Shown: piece by piece, positions 1,607 through 30,684 of the stretch
Layout: the number at the start of each line of letters is the position of its first letter
How positions within the stretch are numbered: the stretch's first letter is position 1
NCBI GenBank assembly: GCA_027460535.1
Contig: JAPZAR010000010.1
Location: 30,001-62,000 of the forward strand
Direction of reading: 5' to 3'
Source of the DNA: Candidatus Methanoperedens sp.
GTDB taxonomy: Archaea > Halobacteriota > Methanosarcinia > Methanosarcinales > Methanoperedenaceae
DNA: 32,000 bases
Notes under the pieces: model-generated
Databases searched by the model: none
Told to the model about the DNA's origin: nothing
What the model saw: the letters and a program-made list of their open reading frames with translations, nothing else
Position numbers and translations under genes: made by a program

Positions 1607-1662
1607 GTTTATCTTTGGAAGAGCAGAAGGAACCGATTCAACCAAAATAAGGAGGAAAAAAT

Positions 1663-2412: not shown

Positions 2413-2423
2413 GGTGATTCAAA

Positions 2424-10855: not shown

Positions 10856-11233
10856 ATGACATTAAAGGTAACTTTGATAACAGGAAGAACAATCAATCAG
10901 GGAGCAAATCTTGAAAACAAAACCTCTTCTGATTATCTTGAAGCCACGGCTTATTGTGAGTTGAATTCCAAGGATTTGGCACTTTTAGGAAAATCCGGGG
11001 AACATGTAAGGGTTAAGACAGCCCATGGGGATGTAGTGGTGAAATTGAAGGAAAACAACGGCAATCCCGATGGACTGGCATTCATCCCAATGGGCCCGTG
11101 GGCAAACGCAGTGGTTGACCCTGATACTAAGGGCTGCGGGATGCCAGGATTCAAGGGTATTCCGGCAGATATAGAGTGTAAGGATAAGAAAATACTTTTA
11201 ATGAAAGAACTGATTGCGAGGTATAAGCAATGA
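10856..11233 (+). CDS. fwdD: formylmethanofuran dehydrogenase subunit D
   Basis: 125 aa with a molybdopterin-dinucleotide-binding beta-barrel-type sequence (LITGRTINQG...FIPMGPWANAVV). It sits directly upstream of fwdB and overlaps it through ATGA. Confidence 0.88.
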   Translation: MTLKVTLITGRTINQGANLENKTSSDYLEATAYCELNSKDLALLGKSGEHVRVKTAHGDVVVKLKENNGNPDGLAFIPMGPWANAVVDPDTKGCGMPGFKGIPADIECKDKKILLMKELIARYKQ

Positions 11234-12531: not shown

Positions 12532-12532
12532 C

Positions 12533-14251
12533 ATGGAGCTTCTAATAAAGAACGGGGCGTTATTTGACCCGGTCAATGGAATCAAAGGCGACAAAACGGA
12601 TATCCCGATCAAAGATGGAAAAATCGTAGACAAGGTCAGCAGCAGGGCGTCTTTGTTAGATGCAGGCGGCAGGCTTGTAATGGCGGGCGGAGTCGATGCC
12701 CATTCCCACATAGCTGGCGCAAAAGTGAACGTGGGAAGAGTAATGCGTCCCGAAGATACACGGTCGGGAATAAAACCAAGGACAAAAATAACAAGACCGT
12801 ACACAGGTTACACGGTCCCGAATGTTTATGCTATGGGGTACCGCTACGCCCAGATGGGTTATACAACTGTCTTTGAGGCGGCCCAGGCGATAATGAAAGC
12901 ACGCCACACACATGAGGAACTTGAGGAGATACCCATCATCGACAAGGGTGCCCTCACGCTTTTCGGGAGCAACTGGCCCACGATGGACTATGTTCGCGAG
13001 AAAAATATGGATAAGCTGGCAGCGTATGTGGCGTGGGGATTGCTTGCTTCCAGAGGCTTCGGCGTAAAGGTCGTGAACCCCGGCGGCGGCGAGATGTGGG
13101 GATTCGGCAAGAACGTGACAGGTCTTGATGACGTCGTCCCAAATTTTGAAGTCACGCCAAGAGAAATTATCGTGTCATTAATGAAAGCCAATGAAATGCT
13201 GGGGCTTCCGCATTCCGTGCATCTTCATTGCAACAACCTGGGAAAACCTGGGAATTACAAGACAACTCTTGCCAGCATGGAGCTTGCAAAACAGGTGAAA
13301 CCCAGCAAGGATAGGCAGGTTCTTCATGTGACCCATCTTACATTCAACGCATGGGGAGGTACGAATTGGGGAGACTTCGAATCCAAAGCAGATGAAATCG
13401 CAAATTTCCTCAATAACAGCGAGAACGTGACTAGCGATATGGGTCAGCTTATCTTTGGCAGCGCGACCACTATGACGGCTGATGGCCCGGTGCAGTACGC
13501 CAACGCAAAATTATTGCATGAAAAATGGGGTAACGGGGATGTAGAACTTGAAGATGCATCTGGCGTTGTGCCCATCTTCTATGCCAAGCAGGTCTCTATT
13601 CATGCCATAATGTGGGCGATAGGGCTTGAGCTGGCTCTCCTCACAAAAGATCCATACAAAGTGTTGATGACCACTGACCATCCGAATGGCGGCCCGTTCG
13701 TGAACTATCCCGAGGTCATGGCCCTTCTCATGAGCAATAGGAAGCGGCAGGAAGAGATCAAGACCCTGCATGAAGCGGTCCATAAACGGACTAAGATACC
13801 GGGAATTGATCGGGAACTTGACTGGAGCGAGATAGCGATAATGACAAGGGCAGGCCCTGCGAAAGTGCTCGGGCTGCTTGATACAAAAGGTCATCTGGGA
13901 GCTGGGGCGGATGCTGATATTTCAATATATGACATTAAGCCTGACCAGATAGACCCATCAGTGGAACATGCGAAGGTGAAAAGTGCCCTCCAATCCGCGG
14001 CTTACACAATCAAAGGCGGCGAGGTAGTGGTTAAAGACGGGCAGATAGTTGCAACGCCCGCGGGCAGGACTTTCTGGGTGGATGCGGGGGTTCCCGAGCA
14101 GCACATGGACGAGGTCATGAAAGACCTCCGTCTGAAATTCAGGAACTATTACTCTATACAGCTTGCCAACTATATGGTGCAAGATGCGTATGTCACCCAT
14201 CCGAGAGTGGTGAAAGCGGGTGTAATGCCTGTTATGGCGGAGGTGAGCTGA
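12533..14251 (+). CDS. fwdA: formylmethanofuran dehydrogenase subunit A (amidohydrolase)
   Basis: Amidohydrolase fold motifs are present (GGVDAHSHI, HLHCNNLG, TTDHPNGG). I place the start at the ATG at 12533, which is preceded by AGGGGTGA. The track's 12524 start is a GTG inside the fwdB stop region. Confidence 0.92.
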   Translation: MELLIKNGALFDPVNGIKGDKTDIPIKDGKIVDKVSSRASLLDAGGRLVMAGGVDAHSHIAGAKVNVGRVMRPEDTRSGIKPRTKITRPYTGYTVPNVYAMGYRYAQMGYTTVFEAAQAIMKARHTHEELEEIPIIDKGALTLFGSNWPTMDYVREKNMDKLAAYVAWGLLASRGFGVKVVNPGGGEMWGFGKNVTGLDDVVPNFEVTPREIIVSLMKANEMLGLPHSVHLHCNNLGKPGNYKTTLASMELAKQVKPSKDRQVLHVTHLTFNAWGGTNWGDFESKADEIANFLNNSENVTSDMGQLIFGSATTMTADGPVQYANAKLLHEKWGNGDVELEDASGVVPIFYAKQVSIHAIMWAIGLELALLTKDPYKVLMTTDHPNGGPFVNYPEVMALLMSNRKRQEEIKTLHEAVHKRTKIPGIDRELDWSEIAIMTRAGPAKVLGLLDTKGHLGAGADADISIYDIKPDQIDPSVEHAKVKSALQSAAYTIKGGEVVVKDGQIVATPAGRTFWVDAGVPEQHMDEVMKDLRLKFRNYYSIQLANYMVQDAYVTHPRVVKAGVMPVMAEVS

Positions 14252-15009
14252 TGCAGGAAGTTTTCATAAAGCCCAAAATGAAATTCGAGATATCCGTGGA
14301 GGCTGAAAACGTTTCTCCGGATAAGTTCTCGGGAAAGACAGAAAAAGAGATCCAGTCGCTGGAGGCCTGGATGGGAAATCAAAAGACCATGCTCGGTGAG
14401 CTTTTCTTGATCAGGGTGAACGGAGCAGGAGCTGCGGCGGATACGAAAATCGTCATGGAAGGCGATTTCTCGCGTGTTAAAAGGATAGGCGAAGGAATGA
14501 CAGCCGGGTTGATAATGATAAAAGGGAACGTGGATATGCACCTTGGCTCAAAGATGAGCGGCGGAAAAATATCCGTATCTGGAAATGTGGATTCCTGGGC
14601 AGGCAGGGAGATGAAAGGCGGGGAGATCATTATCGAAGGTGATGCCGCTTATTATCTTGGAGCTGGATACCGCGGAGAAAAATGTGGTATGCGAGGAGGT
14701 AAGATCACAGTTCTGGGGAATACACTTGACTTCGTGGGCGAGCATATGTGCGGTGGGGAGATCGTTGTGAAAGGCAACGCAGGGATACTTGCCGGATTGA
14801 GCAACAACGGCGGCAAGATCGTGATCGAAGGTAATACCAGCAGGCCGGGGAGCGAGATGGTGAAAGGTACAATAATAGTCAACGGTGCCGTTGATGAGAT
14901 GATGCCTGTTTTCAAGCTTGAAGGCACGGAGGCCGTGGACGGCGCCACTTACAGGAAATATACGGGGGATGTCATAGTAAATGGAAAAGGTCTGCTGTAC
15001 GTGAAGTAA
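14251..15009 (+). CDS. fwdC: formylmethanofuran dehydrogenase subunit C
   Basis: 252 aa with repeated glycine-rich beta-helix units (GGKISVSGN, GGEIIIEGD, GGKITVLGN, GGEIVVKGN, GGKIVIEGN). Its start overlaps the fwdA stop as TGATG. Confidence 0.92.
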   Translation: MQEVFIKPKMKFEISVEAENVSPDKFSGKTEKEIQSLEAWMGNQKTMLGELFLIRVNGAGAAADTKIVMEGDFSRVKRIGEGMTAGLIMIKGNVDMHLGSKMSGGKISVSGNVDSWAGREMKGGEIIIEGDAAYYLGAGYRGEKCGMRGGKITVLGNTLDFVGEHMCGGEIVVKGNAGILAGLSNNGGKIVIEGNTSRPGSEMVKGTIIVNGAVDEMMPVFKLEGTEAVDGATYRKYTGDVIVNGKGLLYVK

Positions 15010-16471: not shown

Positions 16472-17842
16472 TCACTTTGATCTCTTCTTTAAATACAATC
16501 TTAATGCAAGTATGAATATGATAACTATGGAAAGTCCAATTATGGGTTTAAGCTGTGGTTTTTTTTCGATTTCAGGTACTGCGGTCACAGTGGGAGCGGT
16601 GGTAGCTGCCTCTACAAAAAATACCTTGCTCAGAGCCGAATTTCCTATCGTTACTCTGTACGCGCCGAGGTCAGATCTCGTGACAGTGAACTTAATATCC
16701 TCTATTTCCGAAAAATTCAGATATACCTCGCGTTCCTCTTGCAGGGCATCATTGATGAAAATATCCACGGGCTGTGATCCGTCCTTACCTGTATTTTCCA
16801 CGGTCACAGAAATGGTCACTGTTTGATTTGGCGGAACGCTCAAATGATCTATCTGTATATCCTTAAAATCGAATGCGGTAGGTATTTCGATCTTTTTTTC
16901 AGCGCTTACATTGAAGACCGTGGATAGTTCTAGACCTACCGTGTTATTCCCCGTAGGGATGATCTCCAAGCTGTGGTTCCCAACGGTTTCCGATGAGACC
17001 GTGAACGAGACCGGCTGGCTTTGGTAAGCTCCTATTTCGATCGTGGTATTGTCTATTAATTTACCGTCAAGTAACAGGGAAAGGGAGGTCGTTCCTGCCT
17101 CATAAAAAGTATTTGTGACATCAGCGCTCACGAGAACAGGTTCATTCGGGAACACACTCCTTCTGTCAAGTACGATGTTTTCTACTTTGAACCTGTCCAC
17201 GGGGTATTTGCTTGCATATCTGTCTATATAAAAGTTCTTATTGATCGAGATCTCCTGTGTATTTAATAATCCGCTCTCATTTGTTATATCACTCCGGTCT
17301 AAGTACGGGATATCTGGTTTACTGCTTCCGTTCAGATATGAAAAGGTCACATCAGAATAGTACTGATCCATAATGGAATCATTGAGAAGGTCAAAAATAT
17401 GGATCTCTGCGGTATAAATGCCGTCCTCCCAGCTCGTCGGCACTTCCCTTGAATAGGTGATGAAATCATTCTCCCTGTAATCCTCGTATCTGTCACTGTA
17501 CGCTGCAGTATCCACTATGTTATTATTAGAATCCCTGATAATGAATACATAATCCACACCTACTTCGCGCCTGTGATTTACTCCATTAGCTTCGGCGTAG
17601 ATCTTTAGGATGCTGCCCGGGGGAAATCTATCGTTCCAGTGCAGGTCGTAGTCCTGTAATCCCCTTACGTTGTAGACTATTCTGGCATATCCGGTATCTA
17701 TTGCCAATGAGGGGAGAGGTAATATTGCGAGCATAATAACCAGAATTATCATGGGTATATAATTCATGGACAACATAATACAAATTTGCTTATAAAGATT
17801 TTGAAAAAATTTGCATATGCAACGCATGAATTTTTTGTTCAT
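16472..17842 (-). CDS. CARDB-repeat cell-surface protein with a C-terminal TM anchor
   Basis: Has a signal-like N-terminus; an alternative start is MNYIPMIILV at 17767. Two CARDB-like repeats are present (VLVSADVTNTFYEAGTTSLSLLLDGK...; VTISVTVENTGKDGSQPVDIFINDA...). The C-terminus is a hydrophobic helix plus a basic tail (IIGLSIVIIFILALRLYLKKRSK). Many N-x-S/T sequons occur. Confidence 0.7.
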   Translation of the reverse strand: MNKKFMRCICKFFQNLYKQICIMLSMNYIPMIILVIMLAILPLPSLAIDTGYARIVYNVRGLQDYDLHWNDRFPPGSILKIYAEANGVNHRREVGVDYVFIIRDSNNNIVDTAAYSDRYEDYRENDFITYSREVPTSWEDGIYTAEIHIFDLLNDSIMDQYYSDVTFSYLNGSSKPDIPYLDRSDITNESGLLNTQEISINKNFYIDRYASKYPVDRFKVENIVLDRRSVFPNEPVLVSADVTNTFYEAGTTSLSLLLDGKLIDNTTIEIGAYQSQPVSFTVSSETVGNHSLEIIPTGNNTVGLELSTVFNVSAEKKIEIPTAFDFKDIQIDHLSVPPNQTVTISVTVENTGKDGSQPVDIFINDALQEEREVYLNFSEIEDIKFTVTRSDLGAYRVTIGNSALSKVFFVEAATTAPTVTAVPEIEKKPQLKPIIGLSIVIIFILALRLYLKKRSK

Positions 17843-17997: not shown

Positions 17998-18990
17998 TTA
18001 TTTTTTCCAGGCATAACCATTCTCGGGATTTTTTTTTTCTTTCTCTAATTTATGTTCAAGCTTCATAATTGAAGCCTCGAACAATTCTTTAAATAATCCT
18101 TTTTGTTGCAATGCAAAAAAACCGCTTTCTATGGTTTCGGGCTTCCTTGGGGCAATAAAGGGCAGACTTCCTGTGGATGAATATACAGCCCAGAGATAAT
18201 AAATAAATGTGTAAATACCCACGAAAACGTACATTGTAGCCATCATTACATTATAATTCAAAAGGTTGCCCAGGAGCATTACGGTTACTGGTATGGCAAG
18301 GATTGGCAAAAAAACCATGGACCATGCGGTAGCCTCTTTCCAGAGACCGTATTCGTTTGTAATGAATACCCACCACATGATAAATATCAGAAGAATTGCA
18401 TAGGGTGTGATGCCACTGAGGTTGAAATTTACAAAGAACATGAACGCGGCCATTGTTACTGTCATTAAAAAGATCGTTTTGATCGCAAATTTGATGGAGG
18501 TCCCCACCGCAATGGGCTCCTGCATGAGATCTTTTGATCTTATATCCCTTTCATACCGTTCTTCCAGGATATTCTGGACCTTTAGATCGATATTTGACAA
18601 TCGGTCCAGGACGACATTCGTTCCAATGTGAGCCTGTGCGATGTTTTCGATCAGGGGCTCCAATCTTGCGTAGACCCCATCCTGGAATGCTGTATCGATC
18701 AATACCTCGGTAACGATTCTTCTCTTGAATGTTCTAAAAATAAAATATATCGGACCAATGAATATTATAATAAGAGATATATCTATTAATGCATAAAGAT
18801 AATTTGCGCTGGCAAAATCAATAAAAAAGGAAACGGCTGAAAATAGCAATATTGCTATCGTAATGATCAAAGCGCTTATCAAGCCTATTTTCTCAAAGAA
18901 TTGCAAATGCTGGATTGGCTTTTCAGATATATCCTCATCAACATCGAGCAAAGGGTTCTTCATTTTATCACGGCTATTGCTGGGTCCCAT
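17998..18990 (-). CDS. polytopic (~6 TM) membrane protein of unknown function
   Basis: 330 aa with six hydrophobic helices and a ~75-aa loop between TM2 and TM3. No His or Cys occurs in the helices. Its start overlaps the 3' end of the upstream cytochrome gene by 17 nt. Confidence 0.65.
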   Translation of the reverse strand: MGPSNSRDKMKNPLLDVDEDISEKPIQHLQFFEKIGLISALIITIAILLFSAVSFFIDFASANYLYALIDISLIIIFIGPIYFIFRTFKRRIVTEVLIDTAFQDGVYARLEPLIENIAQAHIGTNVVLDRLSNIDLKVQNILEERYERDIRSKDLMQEPIAVGTSIKFAIKTIFLMTVTMAAFMFFVNFNLSGITPYAILLIFIMWWVFITNEYGLWKEATAWSMVFLPILAIPVTVMLLGNLLNYNVMMATMYVFVGIYTFIYYLWAVYSSTGSLPFIAPRKPETIESGFFALQQKGLFKELFEASIMKLEHKLEKEKKNPENGYAWKK

Positions 18991-20527
18991 TAATATATAT
19001 GGTTACCTGAGGCTCTGTATATATTTTGAAGTGTAATGAATTATTCGGAACAGGATTGTTGGTGTTCTTGCATGCCATGCAGAGATACGATTGAATAAAT
19101 GCCGGCTCCGCACCAATTGAATTTTCTATACCACCCATTGCAGTGCTATTGTAGACGGGAATTTGCGCATTTTCATTCAGATTTACAAGAAGATCGGGTT
19201 TGCCATGGCAATCCAAGCAGGTTATCTGAATTGCACCATGGTTTGGAGAGTTAAATGGATACGCAGGATATGGTGTGGTTCCATTGCTGTTCTGGGTGCT
19301 GGGTCTATGACAGGATTTGCAGTAAGAATTCATATCTGTATAATCAGTAAAATTATGTTTCTGTTTCCATTGTTCATTGGAATGCCCACCAGAAATCACG
19401 GCATCGTTTATATCACTGTGGCAGGATATGCAATCAATCCCGGATATATCTGAGATATTATGTATTTTTCCATTTAAATATTTTGTCACATTTACTTCTT
19501 TTGTAAGCCCATAAGTAAGATTCTCTATCGTCCAGGTACCTGACGAATCCACAACGTCCCATTCGATAAAACTTGGTCTCGTAAAACTTATGTTCGTATT
19601 GAAACTCGAATGGCATGACGTGCATGCGACATCATTTCCTGTGGATATGTTGCTGTTATTAGCGCTTATGACAAATGGGATATGCGCATCCGGTCCATTC
19701 AGGTCACCTGCGTAAACAGGTGCAGTTCTCGCTGGATTACCATTCTGGTCAGTTACGTTCAGCGGTGTAGCACCATGGCAATAGAGGCATGGAGGTACGC
19801 TTGAGGCATGATATGAGGAATATAGCTGATGGCATGAGCCGCATGAAAAATCTTTGTGATGGAAAGAGCTGTTTAGCTGGTCTCTCGTTTCTGAATGGCA
19901 TTTTTCGCATTTCAGCTGTGTTAGGGCAGGGAATTCATGTATACCCGTAGATTCGTTGTCCTGTATCAATAAATGCCTGCTAAAATCATTCTTTGAATAA
20001 TTTGACAGCTGCCATGAGCTATCGTTTGTCCTGTCAGCATTGAATTCATACGTTAAAGCATATAGCATCGAGATAGTAAGCGACTTGGCGGTATGGCACG
20101 AAACACACGCCTCGTTCTCTCCTTTCAGGAATGGAGATGAATTGGCACCCGTTATGAAAGGATTGTGAGATTCATCATTCATAATATTCTCCCCGAAAAC
20201 CTTGGCTAGTGGAGAAACGCTTGTGTTCCCGTCGGAATCAACCGTTCGGTTCGAGGTTCCATGGCAATCAAGGCATCGGGGACTGATCACATTCCCATGC
20301 GTGAGGTTTGAGCTGGTATTCAGGACATGGCAGTTTTCGCATGTGAAAGATGTGTGGATTCCGGAGAGAAGAAGTTCAGACTTTATGTCCGAATGGCACT
20401 TAACGCAATAAGAATTATTTGAATCATAGAACCAGTGCTGACCTCCCAGAAGTGAAAAGATCGCGGGTATAGCGAGAATAGCGATCGAGAAAAGAGCCGT
20501 GACAAGAAAGAAGTGCCGAAGTTCCAT
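18974..20527 (-). CDS. multiheme c-type cytochrome with 11 CXXCH plus 1 CXXCK
   Basis: 517 aa. I counted CVKCH, CENCH, CLDCH, CVSCH, CEKCH, CGSCH, CLYCH, CTSCH, CISCH, CKSCH, CLDCH and a terminal CMACK. The N-terminus has a signal peptide followed by LLGGQHWFY. More than 20 N-x-S/T sequons occur. Confidence 0.9.
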   Translation of the reverse strand: MELRHFFLVTALFSIAILAIPAIFSLLGGQHWFYDSNNSYCVKCHSDIKSELLLSGIHTSFTCENCHVLNTSSNLTHGNVISPRCLDCHGTSNRTVDSDGNTSVSPLAKVFGENIMNDESHNPFITGANSSPFLKGENEACVSCHTAKSLTISMLYALTYEFNADRTNDSSWQLSNYSKNDFSRHLLIQDNESTGIHEFPALTQLKCEKCHSETRDQLNSSFHHKDFSCGSCHQLYSSYHASSVPPCLYCHGATPLNVTDQNGNPARTAPVYAGDLNGPDAHIPFVISANNSNISTGNDVACTSCHSSFNTNISFTRPSFIEWDVVDSSGTWTIENLTYGLTKEVNVTKYLNGKIHNISDISGIDCISCHSDINDAVISGGHSNEQWKQKHNFTDYTDMNSYCKSCHRPSTQNSNGTTPYPAYPFNSPNHGAIQITCLDCHGKPDLLVNLNENAQIPVYNSTAMGGIENSIGAEPAFIQSYLCMACKNTNNPVPNNSLHFKIYTEPQVTIYINGTQQ

Positions 20528-20550: not shown

Positions 20551-21276
20551 TTATCTACTTTGCCATGGCTTTTGTTTCATCGTCAGGCCGACGTACAGAA
20601 GGAGAGAGAATGCCGCTATAACATAACCATAGATCTTCACGACCTGGAAGAAAAGGAAATATTTATTGTAGTCAGTTCCAAAAGGACCGAAATCCTGGTG
20701 CCTATCATCCACTATGAAAAATTTTCCATACCCTTTGATAACTATTGGTTTCCCATTCATCAGGATAGCTTTTCCCAGGATATCTTCTTTTTTGATGTCC
20801 CACCAGTCCACCTGGCCTGTGGCATCCCCGGCCGTATGAATGCCTTCTTTGGTGATGCTTACGATCCGGTGCGAAACCGGATTCGAGGTATCGGGCCGTT
20901 CGAACATTATTATATCTCCGGTTTTGTAGGTGTGCTCTATATTCTGCATCAGGATAATATCGTTAGTATTGAATGTCGGGGACATGCTCCCCGATGCCAC
21001 AGCCGTTAAAAAGATCGCTTTTGTGGAGAGCAGGCCCATTATGAGCAATACGCACATGAGTGCCGATGCCTCTTTAAAGAACACCTTCTGAAAATCCAGA
21101 GGTCGCCTGTTTATTTTTTTGATATATCTGTCCATTCTCTGCTTTCTGCCAAATTCCCAGTATCGTTGCCTGATGGTTTCAAGGACGTCCGTATTTTGTA
21201 CGATTTTTCTGTAAACAAGCATCAAGAAAATACCGAGCGATACCAGGAACAGTATATCATTTAGTGGTATATACAT
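20551..21276 (-). CDS. type I signal peptidase (S26 family, archaeal/ER Ser-His type)
   Basis: 241 aa. The boxes are SGSMSPT (catalytic Ser), GDIIMF, SHRIVS (His in place of the bacterial Lys) and TAGDATG. TM helices are present at the N- and C-termini. Confidence 0.8.
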   Translation of the reverse strand: MYIPLNDILFLVSLGIFLMLVYRKIVQNTDVLETIRQRYWEFGRKQRMDRYIKKINRRPLDFQKVFFKEASALMCVLLIMGLLSTKAIFLTAVASGSMSPTFNTNDIILMQNIEHTYKTGDIIMFERPDTSNPVSHRIVSITKEGIHTAGDATGQVDWWDIKKEDILGKAILMNGKPIVIKGYGKFFIVDDRHQDFGPFGTDYNKYFLFFQVVKIYGYVIAAFSLLLYVGLTMKQKPWQSR

Positions 21277-21308: not shown

Positions 21309-22022
21309 TCAGGGATTGAGGGGGTCCCATCCTATTGGGGTCGGAGATATAGAGATCACAGGTTGTGTCGAATTGTTTACTCCGCCGGACTGGTTGCCGT
21401 ATGTCTGTATGAAAGCTGATCCTTCGATCGTGAAGTTGCCAACTGTCCATGTACGGCTGCCGTCCGAGGACATGTTCTCCTGTGCATCAAAGGCTATTTT
21501 GTACGCTTTCGTCCAGTTGATATCTACGGCTACGTGCGTGTGGCATGCGATACATGCTTCATTGGCTCCCTTTAGCAGGGAAGAGTTGCTAGCCGCGTTT
21601 GCGAACGGCTTGTGGACCTCCTCAGGTCCATTGAGAATATTTGTTGCGTTCAATCCAGGTTCGAATGATGCGTTATGGCAGTCCAGGCAGGCGGGAGATG
21701 CAGCCGCATGGAATTGACCACCTGTTAAATCAGGGGGTCCATTAACGATACCTTCTTTTTGCATCGCTGTCGTCATATGGCATCCTTCGCAGCCGTATGC
21801 CCTGTGGGCTGCATTGACCCCCCCTGGCTGTTTTAGCTCTGCAAAGATATCGGCATGACATTTTCCGCAGGGAATATTGGTTGTAGTTCCTCCTCCATAA
21901 ACATTATTGCTTATCGTATCATAGAAATTATGCTGGCCTACGAATAACGCAAGTGTCTGTGGCAGAGCTACAAGTCCCACAGCTGCTATTGCCAGCCCGA
22001 TTAACATCAATTTGGTAGCCAT
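21309..22022 (-). CDS. tetraheme c-type cytochrome, LFxGQH family (paralog A)
   Basis: 237 aa with CGKCH, CEGCH, CLDCH and CIACH. The Sec-type signal is MATKLMLIGLAIAAVGLVALPQTLA, followed by LFVGQHNFY. Eight N-x-S/T sequons occur. A GGAAGAGGT ribosome-binding site is present. Confidence 0.9.
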   Translation of the reverse strand: MATKLMLIGLAIAAVGLVALPQTLALFVGQHNFYDTISNNVYGGGTTTNIPCGKCHADIFAELKQPGGVNAAHRAYGCEGCHMTTAMQKEGIVNGPPDLTGGQFHAAASPACLDCHNASFEPGLNATNILNGPEEVHKPFANAASNSSLLKGANEACIACHTHVAVDINWTKAYKIAFDAQENMSSDGSRTWTVGNFTIEGSAFIQTYGNQSGGVNNSTQPVISISPTPIGWDPLNP

Positions 22023-22209
22023 TTATTCTGGTACCTCTTCCTATCCGGAATTATAAAGGCGTATTTTATATATCTTCTTATGGGAAATATACTTTCCGAT
22101 TTCAAAACACATGACATGATTTTAATAAGTTTTATAATTATATGCTCCTTGCCTTTATTAAAAATGCTGGCATGGGAAAAAAAATAGAAATATTCAATGG
22201 CTCAAACAT

Positions 22210-22245
22210 AAAAAAATAAATAGGAAAAATTTTTTTTTCCTATTT
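22210..22245 (-). terminator. AT-rich hairpin plus T7 run downstream of tetraheme paralog B
   Basis: On the minus strand the sequence reads TAAataggaaaaaaaaatttttcctatttattttttt. The 12-bp stem is aaataggaaaaa / tttttcctattt and overlaps the stop codon. A T7 run follows. Confidence 0.4.
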
Positions 22246-22975
22246 ACGGAGTGCTCGGGTCCCATCCTGGCGGTGTTGGCGATACAGTTACAACCGGTGC
22301 GGTAGAAGCATTATTTTCACCTGACATGTTACCATAGGTCGTTATATTGGCGGAGCCCTGAATTCCAAAGCTGCTGATATTCCATGAATGGGTGCCGCTG
22401 CCGTCAGTGGCCATTTGTGCTACTGAGGTAAAGTTCATCATGTATGCCTTTGACCAGCTGATATTCACGGCCACATGCGTGTGGCATGCGACACATGCTT
22501 CGTTAGCCCCCTTCAAAAGGGAAATATTATTGGTCTGATTTGCAAATGATGCATGAACTTCTACATTGGTTATAACTCCCGTTGTGTTAGTAACAATTCC
22601 AAAAATATTACGTGCATCGTTTATGCCTGTGCTATTTCCATCATGGCAATCTAAACAGGCAGGAGCTGCAGCAGCGTGGAACTGCCCTGTAGGCCCGTTA
22701 TAGAAACCTTCCTTTTGGAGCGCTAGCATGTGGCATCCTCCGCAGCCCTGTTGAAGGTGAACTGAATTTACCGCTCCAGCCTGTTTCAACTCTGCATATA
22801 CATCAGCATGGCATTTTCCGCAAGGGATATTGCTTCCGTTGCCAAAATTGTAGAAATTAGTCGTCATCGTATCGTAGAAATTATGCTGCCCTGCGAATAA
22901 AGCCAGCGTCTGCGGCAGCGCGACCAATCCTACTGCCGCGACTGCAAATCCCATGAGCACAAGTTTGTTCACCAT
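22244..22975 (-). CDS. tetraheme c-type cytochrome, LFxGQH family (paralog B, tandem to A)
   Basis: 243 aa with CGKCH, CGGCH, CLDCH and CVACH. The signal MVNKLVLMGFAVAAVGLVALPQTLA is followed by LFAGQHNFY. The C-terminus SPTPPGWDPSTP is shared with paralog A. An AGGTGA ribosome-binding site is present. Confidence 0.9.
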   Translation of the reverse strand: MVNKLVLMGFAVAAVGLVALPQTLALFAGQHNFYDTMTTNFYNFGNGSNIPCGKCHADVYAELKQAGAVNSVHLQQGCGGCHMLALQKEGFYNGPTGQFHAAAAPACLDCHDGNSTGINDARNIFGIVTNTTGVITNVEVHASFANQTNNISLLKGANEACVACHTHVAVNISWSKAYMMNFTSVAQMATDGSGTHSWNISSFGIQGSANITTYGNMSGENNASTAPVVTVSPTPPGWDPSTP

Positions 22976-23094: not shown

Positions 23095-23523
23095 TTATTT
23101 CCAGAACATATTATCCACTACATAGCCTATCCTGTTCCCGTCTTTATCGACAACGATAATGGAAATATGCACGATGTCGCCGGATACGGGATTATGATCC
23201 TCCTGGAAACCTATGTTGAAAGAATATTTTCCGTTTCCCTTGTAGGTCAGCATTTCCCATGGACCGATAGTGCTGTTTGGACCTTTAGATATCATCGTCC
23301 TGGCACCTATGGCCGGGAAAGAATCAGCCTCCGTGTTTCTCGGTCTGTTGAGGTAGGCCACAGTTCCCTGAGTCAATGTGTAGTTCTGAGCGACGACAAT
23401 TCCCTGGTTTTCCACAAAGGCAATATTTACTTTCACAACAGGCACCTGCTTGGCAGGATTGGTTATACATCCTGAGAATAGTATCACGGGAAGGATCAAC
23501 AATATCATAAGAATTTTTTTCAT
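23095..23523 (-). CDS. small putative lipoprotein of unknown function (paralog of 30223..30684)
   Basis: 142 aa. The N-terminus MKKILMILLILPVILFSGC is lipobox-like. The C-terminal half aligns with 30223..30684 (GKYSFNIGFQEDHNPVSGDIVHISIIVVDKDGNRIGYVVDNMFW vs GVYTLRMFFRDGMEPKKGDVLIIPIRLVSHTGAIQYKTTAFYCW). Confidence 0.65.
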   Translation of the reverse strand: MKKILMILLILPVILFSGCITNPAKQVPVVKVNIAFVENQGIVVAQNYTLTQGTVAYLNRPRNTEADSFPAIGARTMISKGPNSTIGPWEMLTYKGNGKYSFNIGFQEDHNPVSGDIVHISIIVVDKDGNRIGYVVDNMFWK

Positions 23524-23527
23524 AAGA

Positions 23528-24196
23528 TTACCTTATCATTTGAAACAGCGAATCTATCATTTTTCCTATCAACTGACCGATAGTGGGATACTCAAGAGCG
23601 GCAGCGGCCTGAAGGTTTGGCACAGAGGGTGGTGGCATTTTCTGGCCTGCAAACGTCTCTCCGAACTCACCATGGCATGCAACGCACATTTTTTCAAGCC
23701 TTTTGCCATGGACCACATGCGGATCGCCGCCGTGGCAGTCCGAGCATTTTGTCTTCTCTGGTTTTTGAACCGTATTGTTCATAAATGTATGGCAGCTACG
23801 GCATGACACGTTGCTCATAATCCTGTGGAAATCCGCTGCGGTAACATTATTCCCATCTTTATTCCCCACATGGCACTTGATGCACACTATATCCTTATGG
23901 ATTTCGAAGATCTGGGCCATATCCACTTTTAACCCTTGAGCATTTTTTGGCTTGTAATCATGGCATTTACATCCATTGGATATTGACTGTGCTTTCTCGG
24001 TTCCAAGTAGCGTGTAATGGCAGGGGATACAATAGCTCCCGGGATGCCAACTTTCGGTCAATCCATCCGTGAATTGCGGTCTTTCGTATGCATTTGAAGG
24101 CATCGCCAGGATAAACGGGATTATGAGGGAAAAGATCAAAATTATCTTCTGAAACTCATATACTGCATTCCTTTTTAAACTATTTTCACTGGACAT
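23528..24196 (-). CDS. multiheme c-type cytochrome with 5 CXXCH plus one shifted CXCH
   Basis: 222 aa with CIPCH, CIKCH, CRSCH, CSDCH and CVACH. GCKCH occupies the position where the paralog 29545..30147 has CGNCH. The signal peptide ends in SNA. A C-terminal amphipathic helix is present. Confidence 0.9.
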   Translation of the reverse strand: MSSENSLKRNAVYEFQKIILIFSLIIPFILAMPSNAYERPQFTDGLTESWHPGSYCIPCHYTLLGTEKAQSISNGCKCHDYKPKNAQGLKVDMAQIFEIHKDIVCIKCHVGNKDGNNVTAADFHRIMSNVSCRSCHTFMNNTVQKPEKTKCSDCHGGDPHVVHGKRLEKMCVACHGEFGETFAGQKMPPPSVPNLQAAAALEYPTIGQLIGKMIDSLFQMIR

Positions 24197-24215: not shown

Positions 24216-25841
24216 TTATCTTCTGAAATTATGTCTTTTTATTAACCATATAACTATGAAAAGCATGATAAAAATATATCCCTGGAATCCGGACGCCGGT
24301 TTTGGCGTCGTGACAGGCGTCCCGGTGATCCCTGGAGTGGCGGTCTGCACCGGGATACGGGTAACTTCAATAGCAGGGCCTTCCAGCTTCAAAGGTTCCC
24401 TGACATCCAAAACAAGATAGTTTGAAACAGCCCTCTGCGTGTACCTTTCATCCAGATAGAGAAACTGGTCCAAAACTATCGCCTTTGCAGGAGGGATAAC
24501 AAAACTGCCCGAAGCATTTGCATTGAGTGCATAAGAGAAGGATGCCGATTCCCCGGAATGAAGCACAACCGTATTTAAAACAACCTTATATTTTTCAGGC
24601 GACGCGTTTGAGATGGAGTTGTCAGGTGGTAGGCCATCACTCAGTTTTACTATCGCGGTGGCGTCCCCCTGGTTTTTTGCCTCCACTGTAACACTGATAT
24701 TCTCTCCCACAACAGGATTGATAATGTTTGCGGATTTGACCAATACCACATAAGGACCATTAACTATCAGCTTGGCAGGTTTTTCATTGTACCCGAATCC
24801 CCCCGGGTATTCGAAAATCGAGCTTCCGGGCATTAATAGATAAGTCCCTGGCTTTTGTGGTTTTATAGCATAGGATATCAATTTATGCTCAAGAGGTCCC
24901 AGCGAAAAATTCCATGAAAGGTTCGTATCCAGCGGTTCAAGGTCCGGGGGCAGACTGTCGGTGAGGCTCACGTTATCGATCGGCAGGCTGAGATTGTTGG
25001 TAAGGCTTAATGAAACCACGGCAATATCACCCATGTATATTTTTTCGGAAACAAATTTTCCAAACATTATCCTTTTATCCATCTCCCTTACTTCGATATA
25101 GGTTGAATCAACGGCCTTGTAGGCTCTTCTCAGAACGTCATTTCCGTTTACCTCAGCTGAGATCTGGAAGGACTTGCCCTCTGTTATATACGGAGCTTTG
25201 AACCTGACTGTGATAATATCAGATTCATTTCCAGCTTTCAATTCGGGCAATTCATAGTCGAGTCTCTCATGCGCTAGCGGAGGTAATGACGTATTGATTT
25301 GTAAAGTCGGGCTTCTTAACGAGCCTTTGCCGTCATTCCTGATGGTAAAATTGATCGAGATCTCAGAGCCTGGAGCAAATATGCGACTTACAATCGTTCT
25401 ATTATTGAAATGCTTCTCAGCAGGGAGGACTGATAATTTAGGTAACGGGGTACCCGGGACTCGTGTCCGGATCTTTACCCACTGGTCCGCGATCGCATTT
25501 ACTCCATGGGCTGCACCGATGTTCGCGAACCTGTCCTGAAGATCAATAATTGTAATATTCAACCTGTTATCAATAGAAAAAGAATCATTGATCCGCGTAA
25601 TGTTACTTGTAACCAGCCTGTGGTCAGAATCGTACACTGTTATCAGGGCCATGAGATCCTTGAAATCCGTATTATTATAGAAACCCGTTGCCTCGATCTG
25701 GAAACCTTCTCTGGTGAAAGAATCGGTAAATCTCAATGTTTTTTCCTGCGGGTCGACCCATTCTATCTCATCTGCGAATGCAGGATAAATACCTGTGTAA
25801 ATCAAAATTAAAACTATCACTATTTTGTAGAGGTATTTCAT
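24216..25841 (-). CDS. DUF11/CARDB-like repeat cell-surface protein with a C-terminal anchor
   Basis: 541 aa with signal MKYLYKIVIVLILIYTGIYPAFA. Repeats of the type ...LTNN..LPIDNVSLTDSLPPDLEP and ...EAKNQGDATAIVKLSDGLPPDNS are present. The C-terminus is PASGFQGYIFIMLFIVIWLIKRHNFRR. Confidence 0.7.
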   Translation of the reverse strand: MKYLYKIVIVLILIYTGIYPAFADEIEWVDPQEKTLRFTDSFTREGFQIEATGFYNNTDFKDLMALITVYDSDHRLVTSNITRINDSFSIDNRLNITIIDLQDRFANIGAAHGVNAIADQWVKIRTRVPGTPLPKLSVLPAEKHFNNRTIVSRIFAPGSEISINFTIRNDGKGSLRSPTLQINTSLPPLAHERLDYELPELKAGNESDIITVRFKAPYITEGKSFQISAEVNGNDVLRRAYKAVDSTYIEVREMDKRIMFGKFVSEKIYMGDIAVVSLSLTNNLSLPIDNVSLTDSLPPDLEPLDTNLSWNFSLGPLEHKLISYAIKPQKPGTYLLMPGSSIFEYPGGFGYNEKPAKLIVNGPYVVLVKSANIINPVVGENISVTVEAKNQGDATAIVKLSDGLPPDNSISNASPEKYKVVLNTVVLHSGESASFSYALNANASGSFVIPPAKAIVLDQFLYLDERYTQRAVSNYLVLDVREPLKLEGPAIEVTRIPVQTATPGITGTPVTTPKPASGFQGYIFIMLFIVIWLIKRHNFRR

Positions 25842-25976: not shown

Positions 25977-27443
25977 TTACTTAATTAATTTTTTTATCGA
26001 TATCGCCAGAATAAGTCCCATAATGCCAATCAGAAAATAGAATCCCGGTATTCTAGCCGGTGGTGTTTTCTCAGGTACTTCACTGCCGAGATATGTGATC
26101 GTCCTTTTCTCTGTTCTGATATTACCAGCTTTATCTACCGCCACTATAGTTATTATATTAGTGCCGTTTGAAAGGGTAATTACAGAATTCCAGTTATTTG
26201 TCCCGGCGTTCACCCCATTGACCGTCACTAACAGGATGCCACTTGCATCTTCCGCCGTACCCGATATAGAAAATTTATCGGAAGTAACATTTGAAGGTAT
26301 GGGATTGATTCTTAGGACTGGGGGGGTGGTATCCGGTGGCAATGTGGGAGCAACGGTGGGGGTCTCGGGTATCGGAGCTCCGAATGCATACACGTACCCA
26401 TCCCGTGCTGTGGCAAATAACATGTTATCCGATAGGGCCAGGGCGATTACCCCGCTTCCTATCATATATTTATCCATTAATGTCCCATCTGCCGCATCCA
26501 GAGCATATACTGTCCCGTCTTTTGATCCTGCATATACTATTCCCTGCGTTACTACGGGAGACGATTCGACCCGGTCAGAAGTCTTAAATTTCCAGAGCCA
26601 GTCCCCGTTGTCGGCATTCAGCGCATAAAATGTATTATCATTCGATCCTACATATACAGAATTCTCAAGAACAGCAGGTGAGGATCTGACCCAATCATTT
26701 GTTTTCTTGCTCCATTTCAATTCTCCGCTGCTGGAATCTATGGCGTAAATGTTATTATCGTTTGATCCCACATACAAAACGCCGTTCATTACAGAAGGTG
26801 AAGAAAAGACACTTCCACCCGTCTTGTATTTCCACCTGAGATTATTTCCAGCATCCAGAGCATATATGTTATTATCATTTGAACCGACGTAGAGTAACCC
26901 CTGGGCTATTGCAGGTGAGGATTCAACAAAGCCTTGAGTTGAATATTTCCACTTTAAACTTCCATTAATAATGTAAATTGCATAGATGTTCCTGTCAAAG
27001 CCGCCATAAAGAATATTATTATAGGAAATTGGCGGTGAAGCAGAGCTGCTTCCTGTATTATATTTCCATTTAAGGTTCCCGCTATAATCCAGAGCATAAA
27101 TATAATTGTCAAAAGAAGGTGCGAATACGATTCCATTCCTGGCTGCCGGGGTATAAATCTTTCCAAGACCTGGATATTTCCATTTCAATTTTCCCGATGC
27201 TGCGTTTATCGCGTACAGATTGTTGTCATCAGATCCTGCGAACAGGGTCCCGGAATCAATTATCGGCGCAGAGATATCAGAATCCCCTATTTCATATTTC
27301 CACCTTAATTCAAGGGGGACAGTTTGACCTTCCGAATATCCACTGTGCTGCAGGTCCCCACCAACATTCTGCCATTTGCCAGAAGAATTATAAGAAGAGA
27401 GGAGTATAAAAATTAATATCAAAACTGAAGGCCATTTTCGCAT
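25977..27443 (-). CDS. PQQ-like beta-propeller repeat protein with an Ig-like domain and PGF-CTERM sorting signal
   Basis: 488 aa with about 8 repeats of the type N(I/L)YA(I/L)D..(S/N)G.LKWKY. A Pro/Thr linker and a beta-rich domain follow. The C-terminus is ARIPGFYFLIGIMGLILAISIKKLIK, i.e. PGF, a TM helix and a basic tail. Confidence 0.85.
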   Translation of the reverse strand: MRKWPSVLILIFILLSSYNSSGKWQNVGGDLQHSGYSEGQTVPLELRWKYEIGDSDISAPIIDSGTLFAGSDDNNLYAINAASGKLKWKYPGLGKIYTPAARNGIVFAPSFDNYIYALDYSGNLKWKYNTGSSSASPPISYNNILYGGFDRNIYAIYIINGSLKWKYSTQGFVESSPAIAQGLLYVGSNDNNIYALDAGNNLRWKYKTGGSVFSSPSVMNGVLYVGSNDNNIYAIDSSSGELKWSKKTNDWVRSSPAVLENSVYVGSNDNTFYALNADNGDWLWKFKTSDRVESSPVVTQGIVYAGSKDGTVYALDAADGTLMDKYMIGSGVIALALSDNMLFATARDGYVYAFGAPIPETPTVAPTLPPDTTPPVLRINPIPSNVTSDKFSISGTAEDASGILLVTVNGVNAGTNNWNSVITLSNGTNIITIVAVDKAGNIRTEKRTITYLGSEVPEKTPPARIPGFYFLIGIMGLILAISIKKLIK

Positions 27444-27853: not shown

Positions 27854-29155
27854 ATGAATGCAAAATTTAGTTTAGCCTTAATTGCGTTAGTTGGAGTAGG
27901 CGTGTTCGCTCTGCCATCCACGATGGCATTGTTCGCAGGGCAGCACTCATTCTACAACATCGACGCAACAGGCAATCAGGTACCGTGTCAGAAATGCCAC
28001 GGTGACGTGAAAGCAGAATTGAGCAGTGGAGCTTCAGCGACCACAGGCACCCCAGGACCCCACGCAAATTTCAAATGCGAATATTGCCACAGGGCTGAGG
28101 CAGGCGCAGCAAGCGGTGACGATGCATCAGCAGAGATCAGTTATAGGGCAGTGGCCCCGGATACTGGGAGTATTAAACTCGTAACTACAGTGCAGAATTT
28201 CGAGAGAGGGAACTTCCCCAAGAATATCACTTATAGGACTGGCATGACCGTGGACAACTGGAATGCGACACCTTCAGATATACAAAATCTGGACGGCTCA
28301 AATTTCAATGACCAGTTAGCATACCGGGATAACAGTGCTAAGTACAGGGGCAGCCTGACCACCTTTGGTACCAATGGTGTAAAATACAGCTATTCCGGCT
28401 CCTCTGAAGTAGGACTTCGGCCTAACGGAGTGCCGAAAGATACACAACTGACGACGCAGAACACGGCGTTCAATCCAAGAGCGGTAAATTTCACTGGAGT
28501 GACGACTGCAAACTATGATTTCGCAGGTTCAAGAGAAGTCACACCGGGTTCACAGTACCATGCAGCATCTCTCGTCTCATGCCTGGAATGCCATGGCGGA
28601 GAAAAGGAAACGGGTATTGCAGGATACGAGATCGAAAGCGGACCTCCCTATAAACACGAGTCATGGCTACTTAACGGCGAAGGCGGAAGCAGCTGCAATG
28701 ACTGCCACTATGGTGGAAGTGCACTGAGGGAGCGGAATCTCGCTGCAGGTGGATTCGGCTTGACCCCATATGGCAACGACACCGGCGCAATAGAAGCCCA
28801 TAATGCCTTCGTGAAGACGGATGACGGCCTTGACAGGTTCGGCTACGGCGCATCCAATGGCGCATGCATCGCATGCCATACGCACGTTGCAGTGGACATC
28901 ACCTTCCAGAAGGGCTACACGCTATCCTTTGACGCAATCGAGAACTCAGGTACATACAGCGTTGGCAACTTCGCTGTCGGAGGACAGGTCAATGTCGAAA
29001 TATACGGCAATGGCTCAGGCCAGACATTCGCAACCGGCAACAAGACCTATACCTGGACGCCAAGCAGTACGCTGTATCTTAATGGAAACAGTACACAGGT
29101 CAGCGGTCTAAATGGAGATAATAACGACACTGCAGCAGCTTTAACATCCCCGTAA
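27854..29155 (+). CDS. pentaheme c-type cytochrome, LFxGQH family (paralog C, with insertion)
   Basis: Contains CQKCH, CEYCH, CLECH, CNDCH and CIACH. I place the start at the ATG at 27854 (MNAKFSLALIALVGVGVFALPSTMA, then LFAGQHSFY), which matches the paralog N-termini. The track's 27806 start is a TTG. Confidence 0.9.
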   Translation: MNAKFSLALIALVGVGVFALPSTMALFAGQHSFYNIDATGNQVPCQKCHGDVKAELSSGASATTGTPGPHANFKCEYCHRAEAGAASGDDASAEISYRAVAPDTGSIKLVTTVQNFERGNFPKNITYRTGMTVDNWNATPSDIQNLDGSNFNDQLAYRDNSAKYRGSLTTFGTNGVKYSYSGSSEVGLRPNGVPKDTQLTTQNTAFNPRAVNFTGVTTANYDFAGSREVTPGSQYHAASLVSCLECHGGEKETGIAGYEIESGPPYKHESWLLNGEGGSSCNDCHYGGSALRERNLAAGGFGLTPYGNDTGAIEAHNAFVKTDDGLDRFGYGASNGACIACHTHVAVDITFQKGYTLSFDAIENSGTYSVGNFAVGGQVNVEIYGNGSGQTFATGNKTYTWTPSSTLYLNGNSTQVSGLNGDNNDTAAALTSP

Positions 29156-29544: not shown

Positions 29545-30147
29545 ATGAATAAAAACGCTGTATATCCCTGCCTTGTCTTAATCTCCGTTTTACTTACCGC
29601 AGGGGCCGTAAGTGCGGATATTCCGCCAGGGCATAAACCTATCCCATGCTTTGGATGTCATGCAGAGACGCTGAACGCTGATTACGGACCTGGTGAATGC
29701 GGGAACTGCCATGATTACATTCTGGGGGAAGGAGGAGGCTTCAATGTGCCTCTTCTGCAATCCCAGCATAACCCGAACATCTGTACAGCATGCCATATGG
29801 GGAATACACTGGTCAATGCAAGCGCAAGAGACATTTTCCACAACGGTCATAACGCAGTAGAATGCAAACAGTGCCATGAGACAGGGAACTCCACGATTGT
29901 GAAAATCCAGGGAATTGAAGAAAAAGGATATCCCTGCGTGGCATGCCATGGCAATCAGATTCATTCGATACATATAAAGAACCTGGATAAGATCTGCTCT
30001 ATATGTCACGGTTCATGGGCAAAAGACAAGGTTTATGCAGGCAACTCTGCCTCTTCTCCATCGAACAATTCTCAAAAGAACCTCGAAAAATTCACCATAT
30101 TCGATCTTATAAAAAACTTATTTAATGCTATATTTGGAATGATATAA
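29545..30147 (+). CDS. hexaheme c-type cytochrome (paralog of 23528..24196)
   Basis: 200 aa with CFGCH, CGNCH, CTACH, CKQCH, CVACH and CSICH. The signal peptide ends in VSA. The C-terminal helix is FTIFDLIKNLFNAIFGMI. Confidence 0.9.
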   Translation: MNKNAVYPCLVLISVLLTAGAVSADIPPGHKPIPCFGCHAETLNADYGPGECGNCHDYILGEGGGFNVPLLQSQHNPNICTACHMGNTLVNASARDIFHNGHNAVECKQCHETGNSTIVKIQGIEEKGYPCVACHGNQIHSIHIKNLDKICSICHGSWAKDKVYAGNSASSPSNNSQKNLEKFTIFDLIKNLFNAIFGMI

Positions 30148-30222
30148 ATGCACCAGGAAAAAAACTTTAAATACAAAATTTTACTGCTGATACTTTCAGT
30201 ATATGGATAGGAGCGAATGTAA

Positions 30223-30684
30223 ATGGATAAGAAAAAAATCTTAAAATACACAGTGGTAGTGCTGTTGATACTTTCGGTATCAGGGTATTACCTATACCAG
30301 CATGCTTTAGATATCGGCCTGGAAAAACCAGCACTTGTACTGACGGTCTCTACGAATCTGACAGATAAGGGTACCCCAATAATCAACAATGTCACATTCG
30401 AGGAATCCAGTGTGATGTTCTTCTATAAGAGAGCGGATACGCCTGCGAATTTCCCGGAAATAGACGCTAACGCCCGAATCAATAAGCTTGCCGCAATTCC
30501 TGCGAGCTTTTGGGCTTCAATTCATCGCCCAAGCGAAGGCGTGTATACCCTGAGGATGTTCTTCAGGGACGGTATGGAACCTAAAAAAGGCGATGTCCTG
30601 ATCATACCGATCCGCCTTGTAAGCCATACGGGAGCCATCCAGTACAAAACAACAGCTTTCTATTGCTGGAGTTGTGAGGAATGA
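30223..30684 (+). CDS. small N-terminally anchored protein of unknown function (paralog of 23095..23523)
   Basis: 153 aa with an N-terminal TM helix (ILKYTVVVLLILSVSGYYLY) and no lipobox Cys. The C-terminal half aligns with 23095..23523. Confidence 0.65.
   Translation: MDKKKILKYTVVVLLILSVSGYYLYQHALDIGLEKPALVLTVSTNLTDKGTPIINNVTFEESSVMFFYKRADTPANFPEIDANARINKLAAIPASFWASIHRPSEGVYTLRMFFRDGMEPKKGDVLIIPIRLVSHTGAIQYKTTAFYCWSCEE

Follow-up and report, generated by a model that had tools for sequence, protein, structure and literature searches.

Five cytochrome genes with a common N-terminal design

We analyzed a group of multiheme cytochrome genes in a 32,000-nucleotide stretch of DNA from Candidatus Methanoperedens sp. 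(contig JAPZAR010000010.1, positions 30,001 to 62,000); "the window" means this full stretch. The group centers on two adjacent genes on the minus strand, paralogs B (22244..22975), which is the first gene of the tandem pair, and A (21309..22022). They encode precursors of 243 and 237 amino acids, each with four CXXCH heme-binding motifs. Three other genes in the window encode related proteins: paralog C (27854..29155, plus strand; 433 amino acids from its ATG), with five CXXCH motifs; paralog D (30686..31645, plus strand; 319 amino acids), with four; and paralog E (18974..20527, minus strand; 517 amino acids), with 11 and a terminal CMACK. We predict that A and B are tetraheme cytochromes from the family of AvECF (A. 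veneficus extracellular cytochrome filament), a filament-forming cytochrome of Archaeoglobus veneficus. C and D would be long members of the same family, and E would be a fusion of three AvECF-like units.

We re-derived the coordinates and translations of the open reading frames. A six-frame search of the window for L[FL].G[QG]H.[FY]Y found five sites, all of them in A to E (0.0004 sites would be expected by chance, given the composition). This agrees with an earlier analysis that used only the DNA letters (the sequence-only reading), which had reported five proteins with this motif at these coordinates. In each precursor, one or two charged residues and a hydrophobic stretch roughly 16 residues long lead to P-x-[T/I]-x-[A/S], and the motif follows at once. 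The first heme site (CxKCH[AGS]D) is another 4-16 residues along. The ends of the signal peptides (ALPQTLA in A and B; also ALPSTMA, VIPNTLS, and AIPAIFS) and the first CXXCH(A/G/S)D had been read correctly. The motif had also been called invariant, with small residues at -1 and -3. The shared design holds, and D fits it with LFSGGH, but in E the motif is LLGGQH and position -3 is Ile. Similarly, the label "tetraheme" fits A, B, and D only, because C has five CXXCH motifs and E has 11 plus one CXXCK. A, B, and E contain 8, 11, and 22 N-x-S/T sequons, which suggests heavy N-glycosylation of these putatively secreted proteins, as expected of archaeal surface proteins.

The proposal that A and B are tandem duplicates is borne out: they are neighbors on the minus strand and are 58% identical. 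(A is also 100% identical to a Ca. Methanoperedens protein in the database.) Both contain the four heme motifs and the five non-motif histidines that had been listed, namely H31, H73, H105 (H100 in B), H137 (H141 in B), and H163 (H167 in B); B has a sixth, H196. From the sequence, we identified ribosome-binding sites ahead of both genes (GGTGA, 8 nucleotides before B's ATG, and AGAGGT before A's ATG), and the DNA upstream of each is AT-rich and TATA-like. Between B and A lies a 14-bp, AU-rich hairpin followed by a U-run (22210..22247, minus strand), which overlaps B's stop codon. In RNA folding its energy was -15.1 kcal/mol (z = -5.4), and 0 of 200 shuffled sequences were equally stable, so it is likely to be a transcription terminator or attenuator. 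It was not called by a scan for bacterial-type terminators, as it has too few G-C pairs; the bacterial promoter and terminator scan was at background level and is not relevant to an archaeon. In the sequence after A's stop codon, there is no comparable hairpin or U-run, and the next gene starts 32 nucleotides on. Overall, the sequence and the folding agree with the earlier suggestion that each gene has its own ribosome-binding site and AT-rich upstream region and that B has its own terminator.

The C-termini of A (21309..21350) and B (22244..22285) share a conserved PTPxG[WF]DPxxP tail, which is also found in their closest homologs. The tail is missing from many members of the family and lies beyond the part that aligns to the A. 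veneficus protein.

Relationship to AvECF and the putative heme-ligating histidines

When we compared A to the chains in PDB with phmmer, it matched 8e5g_A (E-value = 2.4e-29), which our fold library lists as "Cryo-EM of A. veneficus cytochrome filament". This is the AvECF filament, reportedly described by Baquero et al. in Cell in 2023. C matched the same chain in three collinear pieces (E-value = 1.5e-22), and paralog E matched it more weakly (E-value = 2.2e-8). A profile built from A, B, and 29 homologs aligned to 8e5g_A in a single stretch, with profile positions 4-206 against positions 5-248 of the 262 in the chain (E-value = 8.2e-50). In these alignments, the four CXXCH motifs of A and AvECF are in the same order and four distal histidine positions are kept. 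The N-terminal LPSTTSLFLGQHMWYN motif is also found in AvECF: LVLPSTTSLFLGQHMWYN of the filament protein lies opposite LVALPQTLALFVGQHNFYD of A, so that LFVGQHNFY of A aligns with LFLGQHMWY of 8e5g.

The AlphaFold2 model of A, which was built from a 31-sequence alignment, was poor (mean predicted local distance difference test score, or pLDDT, of 54.6; predicted template modeling score of 0.35). When we used this model to search with Foldseek, 8e5g was the only hit at E ≤ 0.001 (E-value = 1.8e-5, probability 1.00), with a template modeling (TM) score of just 0.30-0.32. Because of the poor model and the low TM scores, we base the assignment of A to this family on its sequence, which provides ample support.

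The sequence-only reading had likened A and B to OmcS-type polymers, in which a histidine from one subunit ligates a heme of the next. As for OmcS itself, A did not match the chains of OmcS (6EF8) or OmcE (7TFS) even at E ≤ 10; the search of PDB yielded just 8e5g and two chance-level matches to MccSep. OmcS is thus an analogy only. The idea of a polymer with ligation across subunits fares better, because A is homologous to AvECF, and AvECF is an extracellular filament in which three of the four hemes receive their distal histidine from another subunit, as described in PMC12203936 and in a preprint (bioRxiv 10.1101/2023.06.12.544705). According to that preprint, the number of cross-subunit histidines in known filaments is 0, 1, or 3. 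An AvECF-type protein has also been named MmcX in Methanocellales Met12 (PMC11176372). When a fragment of AvECF was used as the query against the protein collection, three distant hits came back, and F2KMU8 (AvECF itself) was not among them.

We aligned a hidden Markov model of the family to 206 units, which came from 147 cluster representatives and the proteins in the window. The N-terminal histidine (H31 in A) is His in all 152 of the 152 units that could be compared. H105 is nearly as well conserved (167 of 175 units), as is H137 (154 of 159), while H73, which lies in a variable loop, is His in 109 of 175 units. The second histidine of CHTH (H163) is His in only 66 of 155 units (43%); the equivalent residue is Tyr in AvECF, Ser in D (which has CHTS in place of CHTH), and Ala in the first unit of E. 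Four widely conserved distal histidines match the need of four bis-His hemes, so the alignment indicates that the N-terminal histidine is one of the four required distal ligands and not a spare one. By the same count, the extra histidine is the second His of CHTH, which appears to be subfamily-specific and dispensable. The sequence-only reading had reasoned the other way around: it counted one histidine too many and took the N-terminal one to be the surplus. On our alignment, its conclusion that this histidine matters stands, and more strongly than before, but the route to it was wrong. Given that all four of the distal histidines are conserved, we expect that A and B most likely assemble in the same way as AvECF. 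H31 may be among the three ligands that are exchanged.

The G-x-H motif also recurs within chains. At the start of the second unit, three E-like proteins have TGQHNFP, GQHSFP, and TGQHQFV, and E itself has TGIHEFP. It had been suggested that the new N-terminus created by cleavage is functional, given that conservation continues past the cleavage point. The residues past that point are conserved, but as the motif recurs where there is no free N-terminus, the conserved element would be the G-x-H segment before heme 1 and not a free amino group. No other single non-motif residue is as conserved as the histidine of the N-terminal G-Q-H, and mutagenesis and modeling of multimers would naturally be aimed at it.

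Predicted signal peptide, neighboring genes, and gene order

The predicted Sec signal peptide of A comprises residues 1-25 (21948..22022, minus strand). According to its hydropathy and sequence, one Lys is followed by a hydrophobic segment some 16 residues long, and P-Q-T-L-A comes next, with the predicted cut after Ala25 (...LPQTLA). The predicted mature N-terminus, LFVGQHNFY with His31, is encoded at 21921..21947 on the minus strand (22874..22900 for B). Across the family, position -5 is Pro in 132 of 147 cases, and -3 is Thr in 105 of 148 (otherwise, Val, Ala, Ile, or Ser). Position -1 is Ser, Ala, or Thr in 147 of 149, +1 is Leu in 98 of 149, and +2 is Phe in 136 of 149. In the mature motif, the Gly and the Gln are each present in 132 of 152 family units. 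Judging from these residues, P-x-T-x-[A/S] is a canonical signal-peptidase I site that is conserved far beyond need.

We infer that the signal peptide is actually cleaved, which we consider much more likely than its retention as a membrane anchor, because the site is conserved across the family, a gene for a signal peptidase is adjacent, and the proteins do not belong to the NapC/NirT or NrfH families. Specifically, NapC/NirT (PF03264) had no match to A or E (maximum E-value of 0.01) or to B, C, or D (maximum E-value of 0.001), and the matches to NrfH (TIGR03153) were weak, at 27.2 bits for E and 20 bits for D, as compared to a cut-off of 134.2. Also, 220 of the 262 residues are modeled in 8e5g, a number that leaves room for the loss of a 26-residue leader. 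We considered an archaeal pilin-type (class III) signal peptide as well and rejected it, as no [K/R]-[G/A] cleavage motif precedes the hydrophobic stretch, and a retained hydrophobic helix would be ill-suited to a filament with a heme core. A PGF-CTERM-type sorting signal on A and B was rejected because hydropathy indicates that the C-terminal hydrophobic segment is absent.

The gene that starts 32 nucleotides past A's stop codon (20551..21276, minus strand) encodes a predicted Sec11/SipW-type (Ser/His) signal peptidase I of 241 amino acids, with about three predicted membrane helices. It scores above the cut-offs of both TIGR02228 (63.2 bits; cut-off 51.85) and PF10502 (28.5 bits; cut-off 22.9), and its SGSMSP and SHR align with the catalytic Ser/His motifs SGSMEP and VHR of human SEC11A/C. 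From the gene linkage, this peptidase is a candidate for a dedicated processing enzyme for A and B. The putative partner of the peptidase is a polytopic membrane protein of 330 amino acids (17998..18990, minus strand), which has at least six predicted helices by simple hydropathy and is not above the cut-off for any family in Pfam or NCBIfam. Its gene overlaps the stop codon of the gene for E by 17 nucleotides, and its homologs in Methanoperedens, ANME-1 (one of the lineages of anaerobic methanotrophic archaea, or ANME), GoM-Arc1, and Methanocellales share conserved, Trp-rich motifs (WW..E..L..AW and WAxY). Chadwick et al. 2022 described clusters of cytochrome genes in ANME that carry a signal peptidase and an unannotated "8x TMH" (transmembrane helix) membrane protein, and they proposed that these have a role in cytochrome maturation (PMC9012536). 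We identify the 330-amino-acid protein as probably this "8x TMH" protein.

C and D are 32% identical to each other over their full lengths and have a common insertion of about 150 amino acids between hemes 2 and 3. This long architecture is seen in many of their relatives in the databases. The fifth heme site of C is CNDCH at residue 281, and several other members of the family gain a fifth CXXCH by an insertion after heme 3, so the number of hemes varies within the family. As for E, its BLASTP matches to A and B are at residues 1-196, 203-338, and 355-464, which corresponds to three units in series. In the last unit, CMACK replaces the fourth CXXCH, and there is a Glu at the conserved "EVH" His (the equivalent of H137); with this degenerate last unit, E looks like an end piece.

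Upstream of B, on the minus strand, are a five-heme cytochrome (F, 23528..24196) and a small lipoprotein-like protein (sm142, 23095..23523), which together span 23095..24196. A second copy of this module lies upstream of D on the plus strand (29545..30684), with a cytochrome (G, 29545..30147) and a small protein (sm153, 30223..30684). Thus, the arrangement of a five- or six-heme cytochrome, a small protein, and a family gene is present twice, as F/sm142/B and as G/sm153/D. F and G are 32% identical, and the small proteins are 23% identical (E-value = 1e-7). The small proteins are about 145 amino acids long, with an N-terminal segment that is hydrophobic or lipobox-like, and have no family assignment. 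The module is kept ahead of the family gene in Methanoperedens loci. The window also encodes three large surface-type proteins on the minus strand, each with a C-terminal membrane anchor: a CARDB protein (16472..17842), a DUF11/CARDB protein (24216..25841), and a PQQ-like beta-propeller protein (25977..27443). The genes for these proteins are syntenic with the cytochrome genes across Methanoperedens genomes.

The sequence-only reading had proposed building a model of the family and mapping its distribution, and we did so. An exhaustive profile search of 1.84 billion proteins gave 466 cluster representatives with E-values of 0.001 or lower, and for 93 of them the E-value was 1e-30 or lower. A scan of genomes found 200 relatives, and we examined gene neighborhoods for the best 76 loci, with a distance limit of 10 kb. 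These 76 loci are from Methanoperedens, ANME-1 (Methanophagales), Syntrophoarchaeum, GoM-Arc1, Methanocellales, Geoglobus, and many Archaeoglobaceae. The AvECF family is modest in size and, judging from the organisms of these loci, archaeal. A homolog of the peptidase lies within 10 kb of the family gene in 20 of the 76 loci, and a homolog of the membrane protein does so in 17, next to the peptidase; these loci include ANME-1, Syntrophoarchaeum, GoM-Arc1, and Methanocellales. In the ANME-1 loci, the two homologs adjoin each other. Chadwick et al. 2022 reported that some members of one widespread group of small cytochromes, common to ANME, Syntrophoarchaeum, and Archaeoglobales, rank with the most highly transcribed genes in ANME (PMC9012536). 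We match this group to the family of A and B, and the two are probably the same.

Within Methanoperedens, gene order is kept in loci L002-L010 except L008, and it is partly kept in L001, which is on a short contig. The conserved order is DUF11/CARDB surface protein, five-heme cytochrome, small protein, A/B-type gene (one or two copies), peptidase, E-type fusion, 330-amino-acid membrane protein, and CARDB protein. Many genomes have a single A/B-type gene at this position, and the position of E after the peptidase is conserved.

Elsewhere in the window, on the plus strand, are genes related to methane metabolism: the methyl-coenzyme M reductase genes mcrB (cut by the start of the window), mcrD, mcrG, and mcrA (30..4124), and formylmethanofuran-dehydrogenase-like genes (10856..15009). 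There is no mcrC between these mcr genes. The formylmethanofuran-dehydrogenase-like genes, which we identified from translations of the open reading frames, are 12-20 kb from the cytochrome genes. Together, these genes are consistent with the genome of an ANME-2d archaeon. About 800 nucleotides downstream of mcrA, a 723-amino-acid protein (4929..7100, plus strand) has B12-binding and radical SAM domains and a C-terminal PqqD-like (peptide-recognition) domain. It may be an enzyme that modifies peptides or proteins.

Proposed role and comparison with known systems

We propose, with reasonable confidence, that A and B are tandem filament subunits of the AvECF family and that they lie in a conserved island of genes for extracellular electron transfer in Ca. 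Methanoperedens (ANME-2d). The homology, the conservation of motifs, and the gene linkage come from our analysis; the filament structure of AvECF and its exchange of histidines come from the literature. Each precursor would be exported by Sec, and four c-type hemes would be attached outside the membrane. The signal peptide would be removed after P-x-T-x-[A/S], most likely by the Sec11/SipW-type peptidase that is encoded 32 nucleotides downstream of A. The mature chain would then begin with L-F-x-G-Q-H, whose invariant histidine would be one of the four distal heme ligands. By homology to AvECF, the subunits would stack head to tail and swap histidine ligands, and the resulting continuous chain of hemes would take the electrons from methane oxidation out of the cell, with metal oxides, electrodes, or partner cells as acceptors. 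The long paralogs C and D would be decorated variants with an inserted domain, and E would be a covalent, three-unit version.

Several points weigh against this proposal. A and AvECF are only about 30% identical (28% across the Foldseek alignment), and with a pLDDT of 54.6 for the model and a TM score of 0.30 for the structural match, what supports a common fold is the alignment. Most loci from the Archaeoglobaceae, which are the closest relatives of AvECF, do not have the peptidase within 10 kb, and most do not have the membrane protein either, so the peptidase may be a general cytochrome-processing enzyme and not specific to filaments. Filaments have not yet been visualized in the Methanoperedenaceae (PMC13046784). 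And a transcriptomic study of Methanoperedens on electrodes singled out an OmcZ-like cluster, and a search of its text gave no mention of the cluster with A and B (PMC10874420).

Alternatively, A and B might be small, soluble cytochromes that do not polymerize. As monomers or small oligomers, they would shuttle electrons through the space that separates the S-layer from the cytoplasmic membrane, with their histidines ligating hemes within the same chain. Proteins that swap segments or ligands between subunits can often close as monomers via the same residues. Chadwick et al. proposed just such a role for small ANME cytochromes (PMC9012536), and the lack of an observed filament in the Methanoperedenaceae (PMC13046784) also fits. 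Nevertheless, we consider this unlikely. A and B are homologous from end to end to a protein whose filament structure has been solved, with three of the four distal histidines coming from another subunit; all four distal histidine positions and the N-terminal motif are conserved; and the natural fusion of three units in E implies that the units are meant to sit in series.

It is more doubtful still that the paralogs form a short, hetero-oligomeric conduit attached to the cell, with (for example) E as a base near the membrane or the S-layer, A/B and C/D capping or extending it, and the CARDB and DUF11 surface proteins associated with it. Five divergent paralogs, two more multiheme cytochromes, and three anchored surface proteins in one syntenic island of Methanoperedens would suit such a structure, and the last unit of E, with its CXXCK and the loss of one distal histidine, is degenerate as an end piece might be. 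However, AvECF is described as a homopolymer in PMC11936953, and many genomes have just one A/B-type gene at this position. Finally, it is very improbable that A to E are tetraheme quinol dehydrogenases of the NapC/NirT/NrfH/CymA type with the N-terminal helix kept as a membrane anchor: each paralog does have one N-terminal hydrophobic segment, two homologs (P0053 and P0091) were automatically named "nitrate/TMAO reductase-like tetraheme cytochrome c subunit" (TMAO is trimethylamine N-oxide), and E and D have weak matches to NrfH, but these scores are far under the cut-off and PF03264 is not matched. The hydrophobic stretch covers only some 16 residues and ends in the conserved Pro(-5)-x-Thr(-3)-x-Ser/Ala(-1), and a heme-ligating histidine lies 6 residues beyond the predicted cleavage site. 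The C-terminal region is beta-rich, which is not the case for NapC-type proteins; the AlphaFold2 model, which scores best in this part, has strands at 166-225. The homolog AvECF, moreover, forms an extracellular filament (PMC12203936).

If A and B are filament subunits, then the island might also provide the means to process, assemble, and anchor the nanowire, through the combination of AvECF-type subunits, a dedicated peptidase, the 330-amino-acid membrane protein, and E; this is a tentative suggestion of low probability. Cleavage by the peptidase would free L-F-x-G-Q-H, so that its histidine could enter a heme of the preceding subunit, and proteolysis would thereby license polymerization, much as SipW does for TasA. 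E, in which three units are already joined and the last heme site is degenerate, might be a primer, a base, or a cap. The literature describes the secretion and assembly of such filaments as an unanswered question.

When Methanoperedens removes methane, it hands the electrons on to acceptors such as metal oxides, electrodes, and partner cells, and whether it does so with cytochrome filaments or with conductive archaella is described as an open question in a 2026 review (PMC13046784). This locus supplies candidates, namely two short subunits, two decorated ones, a fused trimer, and a neighboring peptidase and membrane protein. The system itself is of a known kind; what the locus offers is an exact place for it in an organism of environmental importance.

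The pairing of putative fiber subunits with an adjacent peptidase resembles SipW-TasA from Bacillus subtilis, where the gene for a dedicated endoplasmic-reticulum-type signal peptidase lies beside the gene for a secreted fiber subunit. TasA, however, is a non-heme protein that polymerizes by donor-strand exchange. Also, the peptidase in the window matches the NCBIfam model for SipW weakly (41 bits, under the cut-off of 190 bits), and only gene linkage suggests that the archaeal peptidase has a dedicated role. OmcS and OmcE of Geobacter sulfurreducens are alike in principle, as they are homopolymers with a continuous chain of bis-His hemes and at least one cross-subunit histidine (PMC12203936). 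They differ in that they have no detectable sequence relationship to A, in having one cross-subunit histidine versus three for AvECF, and in their setting, which is a bacterial outer membrane instead of an archaeal envelope with an S-layer.

The pair of a signal peptidase and an "8x TMH" protein is known from ANME, Ferroglobus, and Geoglobus (PMC9012536), and as in the window, both genes lie inside cytochrome clusters in ANME. The published pair is next to CcmF2 and a giant S-layer cytochrome (in ANME-2a/2b/3), whereas here the two genes are interleaved with AvECF-family genes, and simple hydropathy gives at least six helices, not eight.

AvECF (also AvECN; UniProt F2KMU8, PDB 8E5G) is the closest comparison. 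That Methanoperedenaceae have homologs of it was already stated in the 2026 review (PMC13046784), and a 2023 preprint aligned homologs from Methanoperedens and from viruses to the A. veneficus protein. So A and B are clearly related to an already known family of filament proteins and are not a new kind of protein, and by this relationship they are probable building blocks of "nanowires". Our analysis adds that the N-terminal histidine is invariant and the histidine of CHTH is dispensable, as quantified across the family; that the cleavage site is very strongly conserved; that several ANME lineages have AvECF-type genes directly interleaved with those for the peptidase and the membrane protein; and that E, from its matches to A and B, can be recognized as a fused trimer. 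AvECF has been demonstrated to form filaments, while the Methanoperedens proteins are known here from their sequences. A and B also differ from AvECF in being only about 30% identical to it, in having an extra histidine (that of CHTH) where AvECF has Tyr, and in the PTPxG[WF]DPxxP tail, which belongs to the A/B type and is absent from many relatives. The Methanoperedens genes are in tandem and are beside the peptidase and the membrane protein, unlike most loci in the Archaeoglobaceae. What A and B share with AvECF extends along the chain: the end of the signal peptide, the L-F-x-G-Q-H start, the order of the CXXCH motifs, the positions of the distal histidines, the NEAC[IV]xCHT at the fourth heme site, and the C-terminal W-x-V-x-N region.

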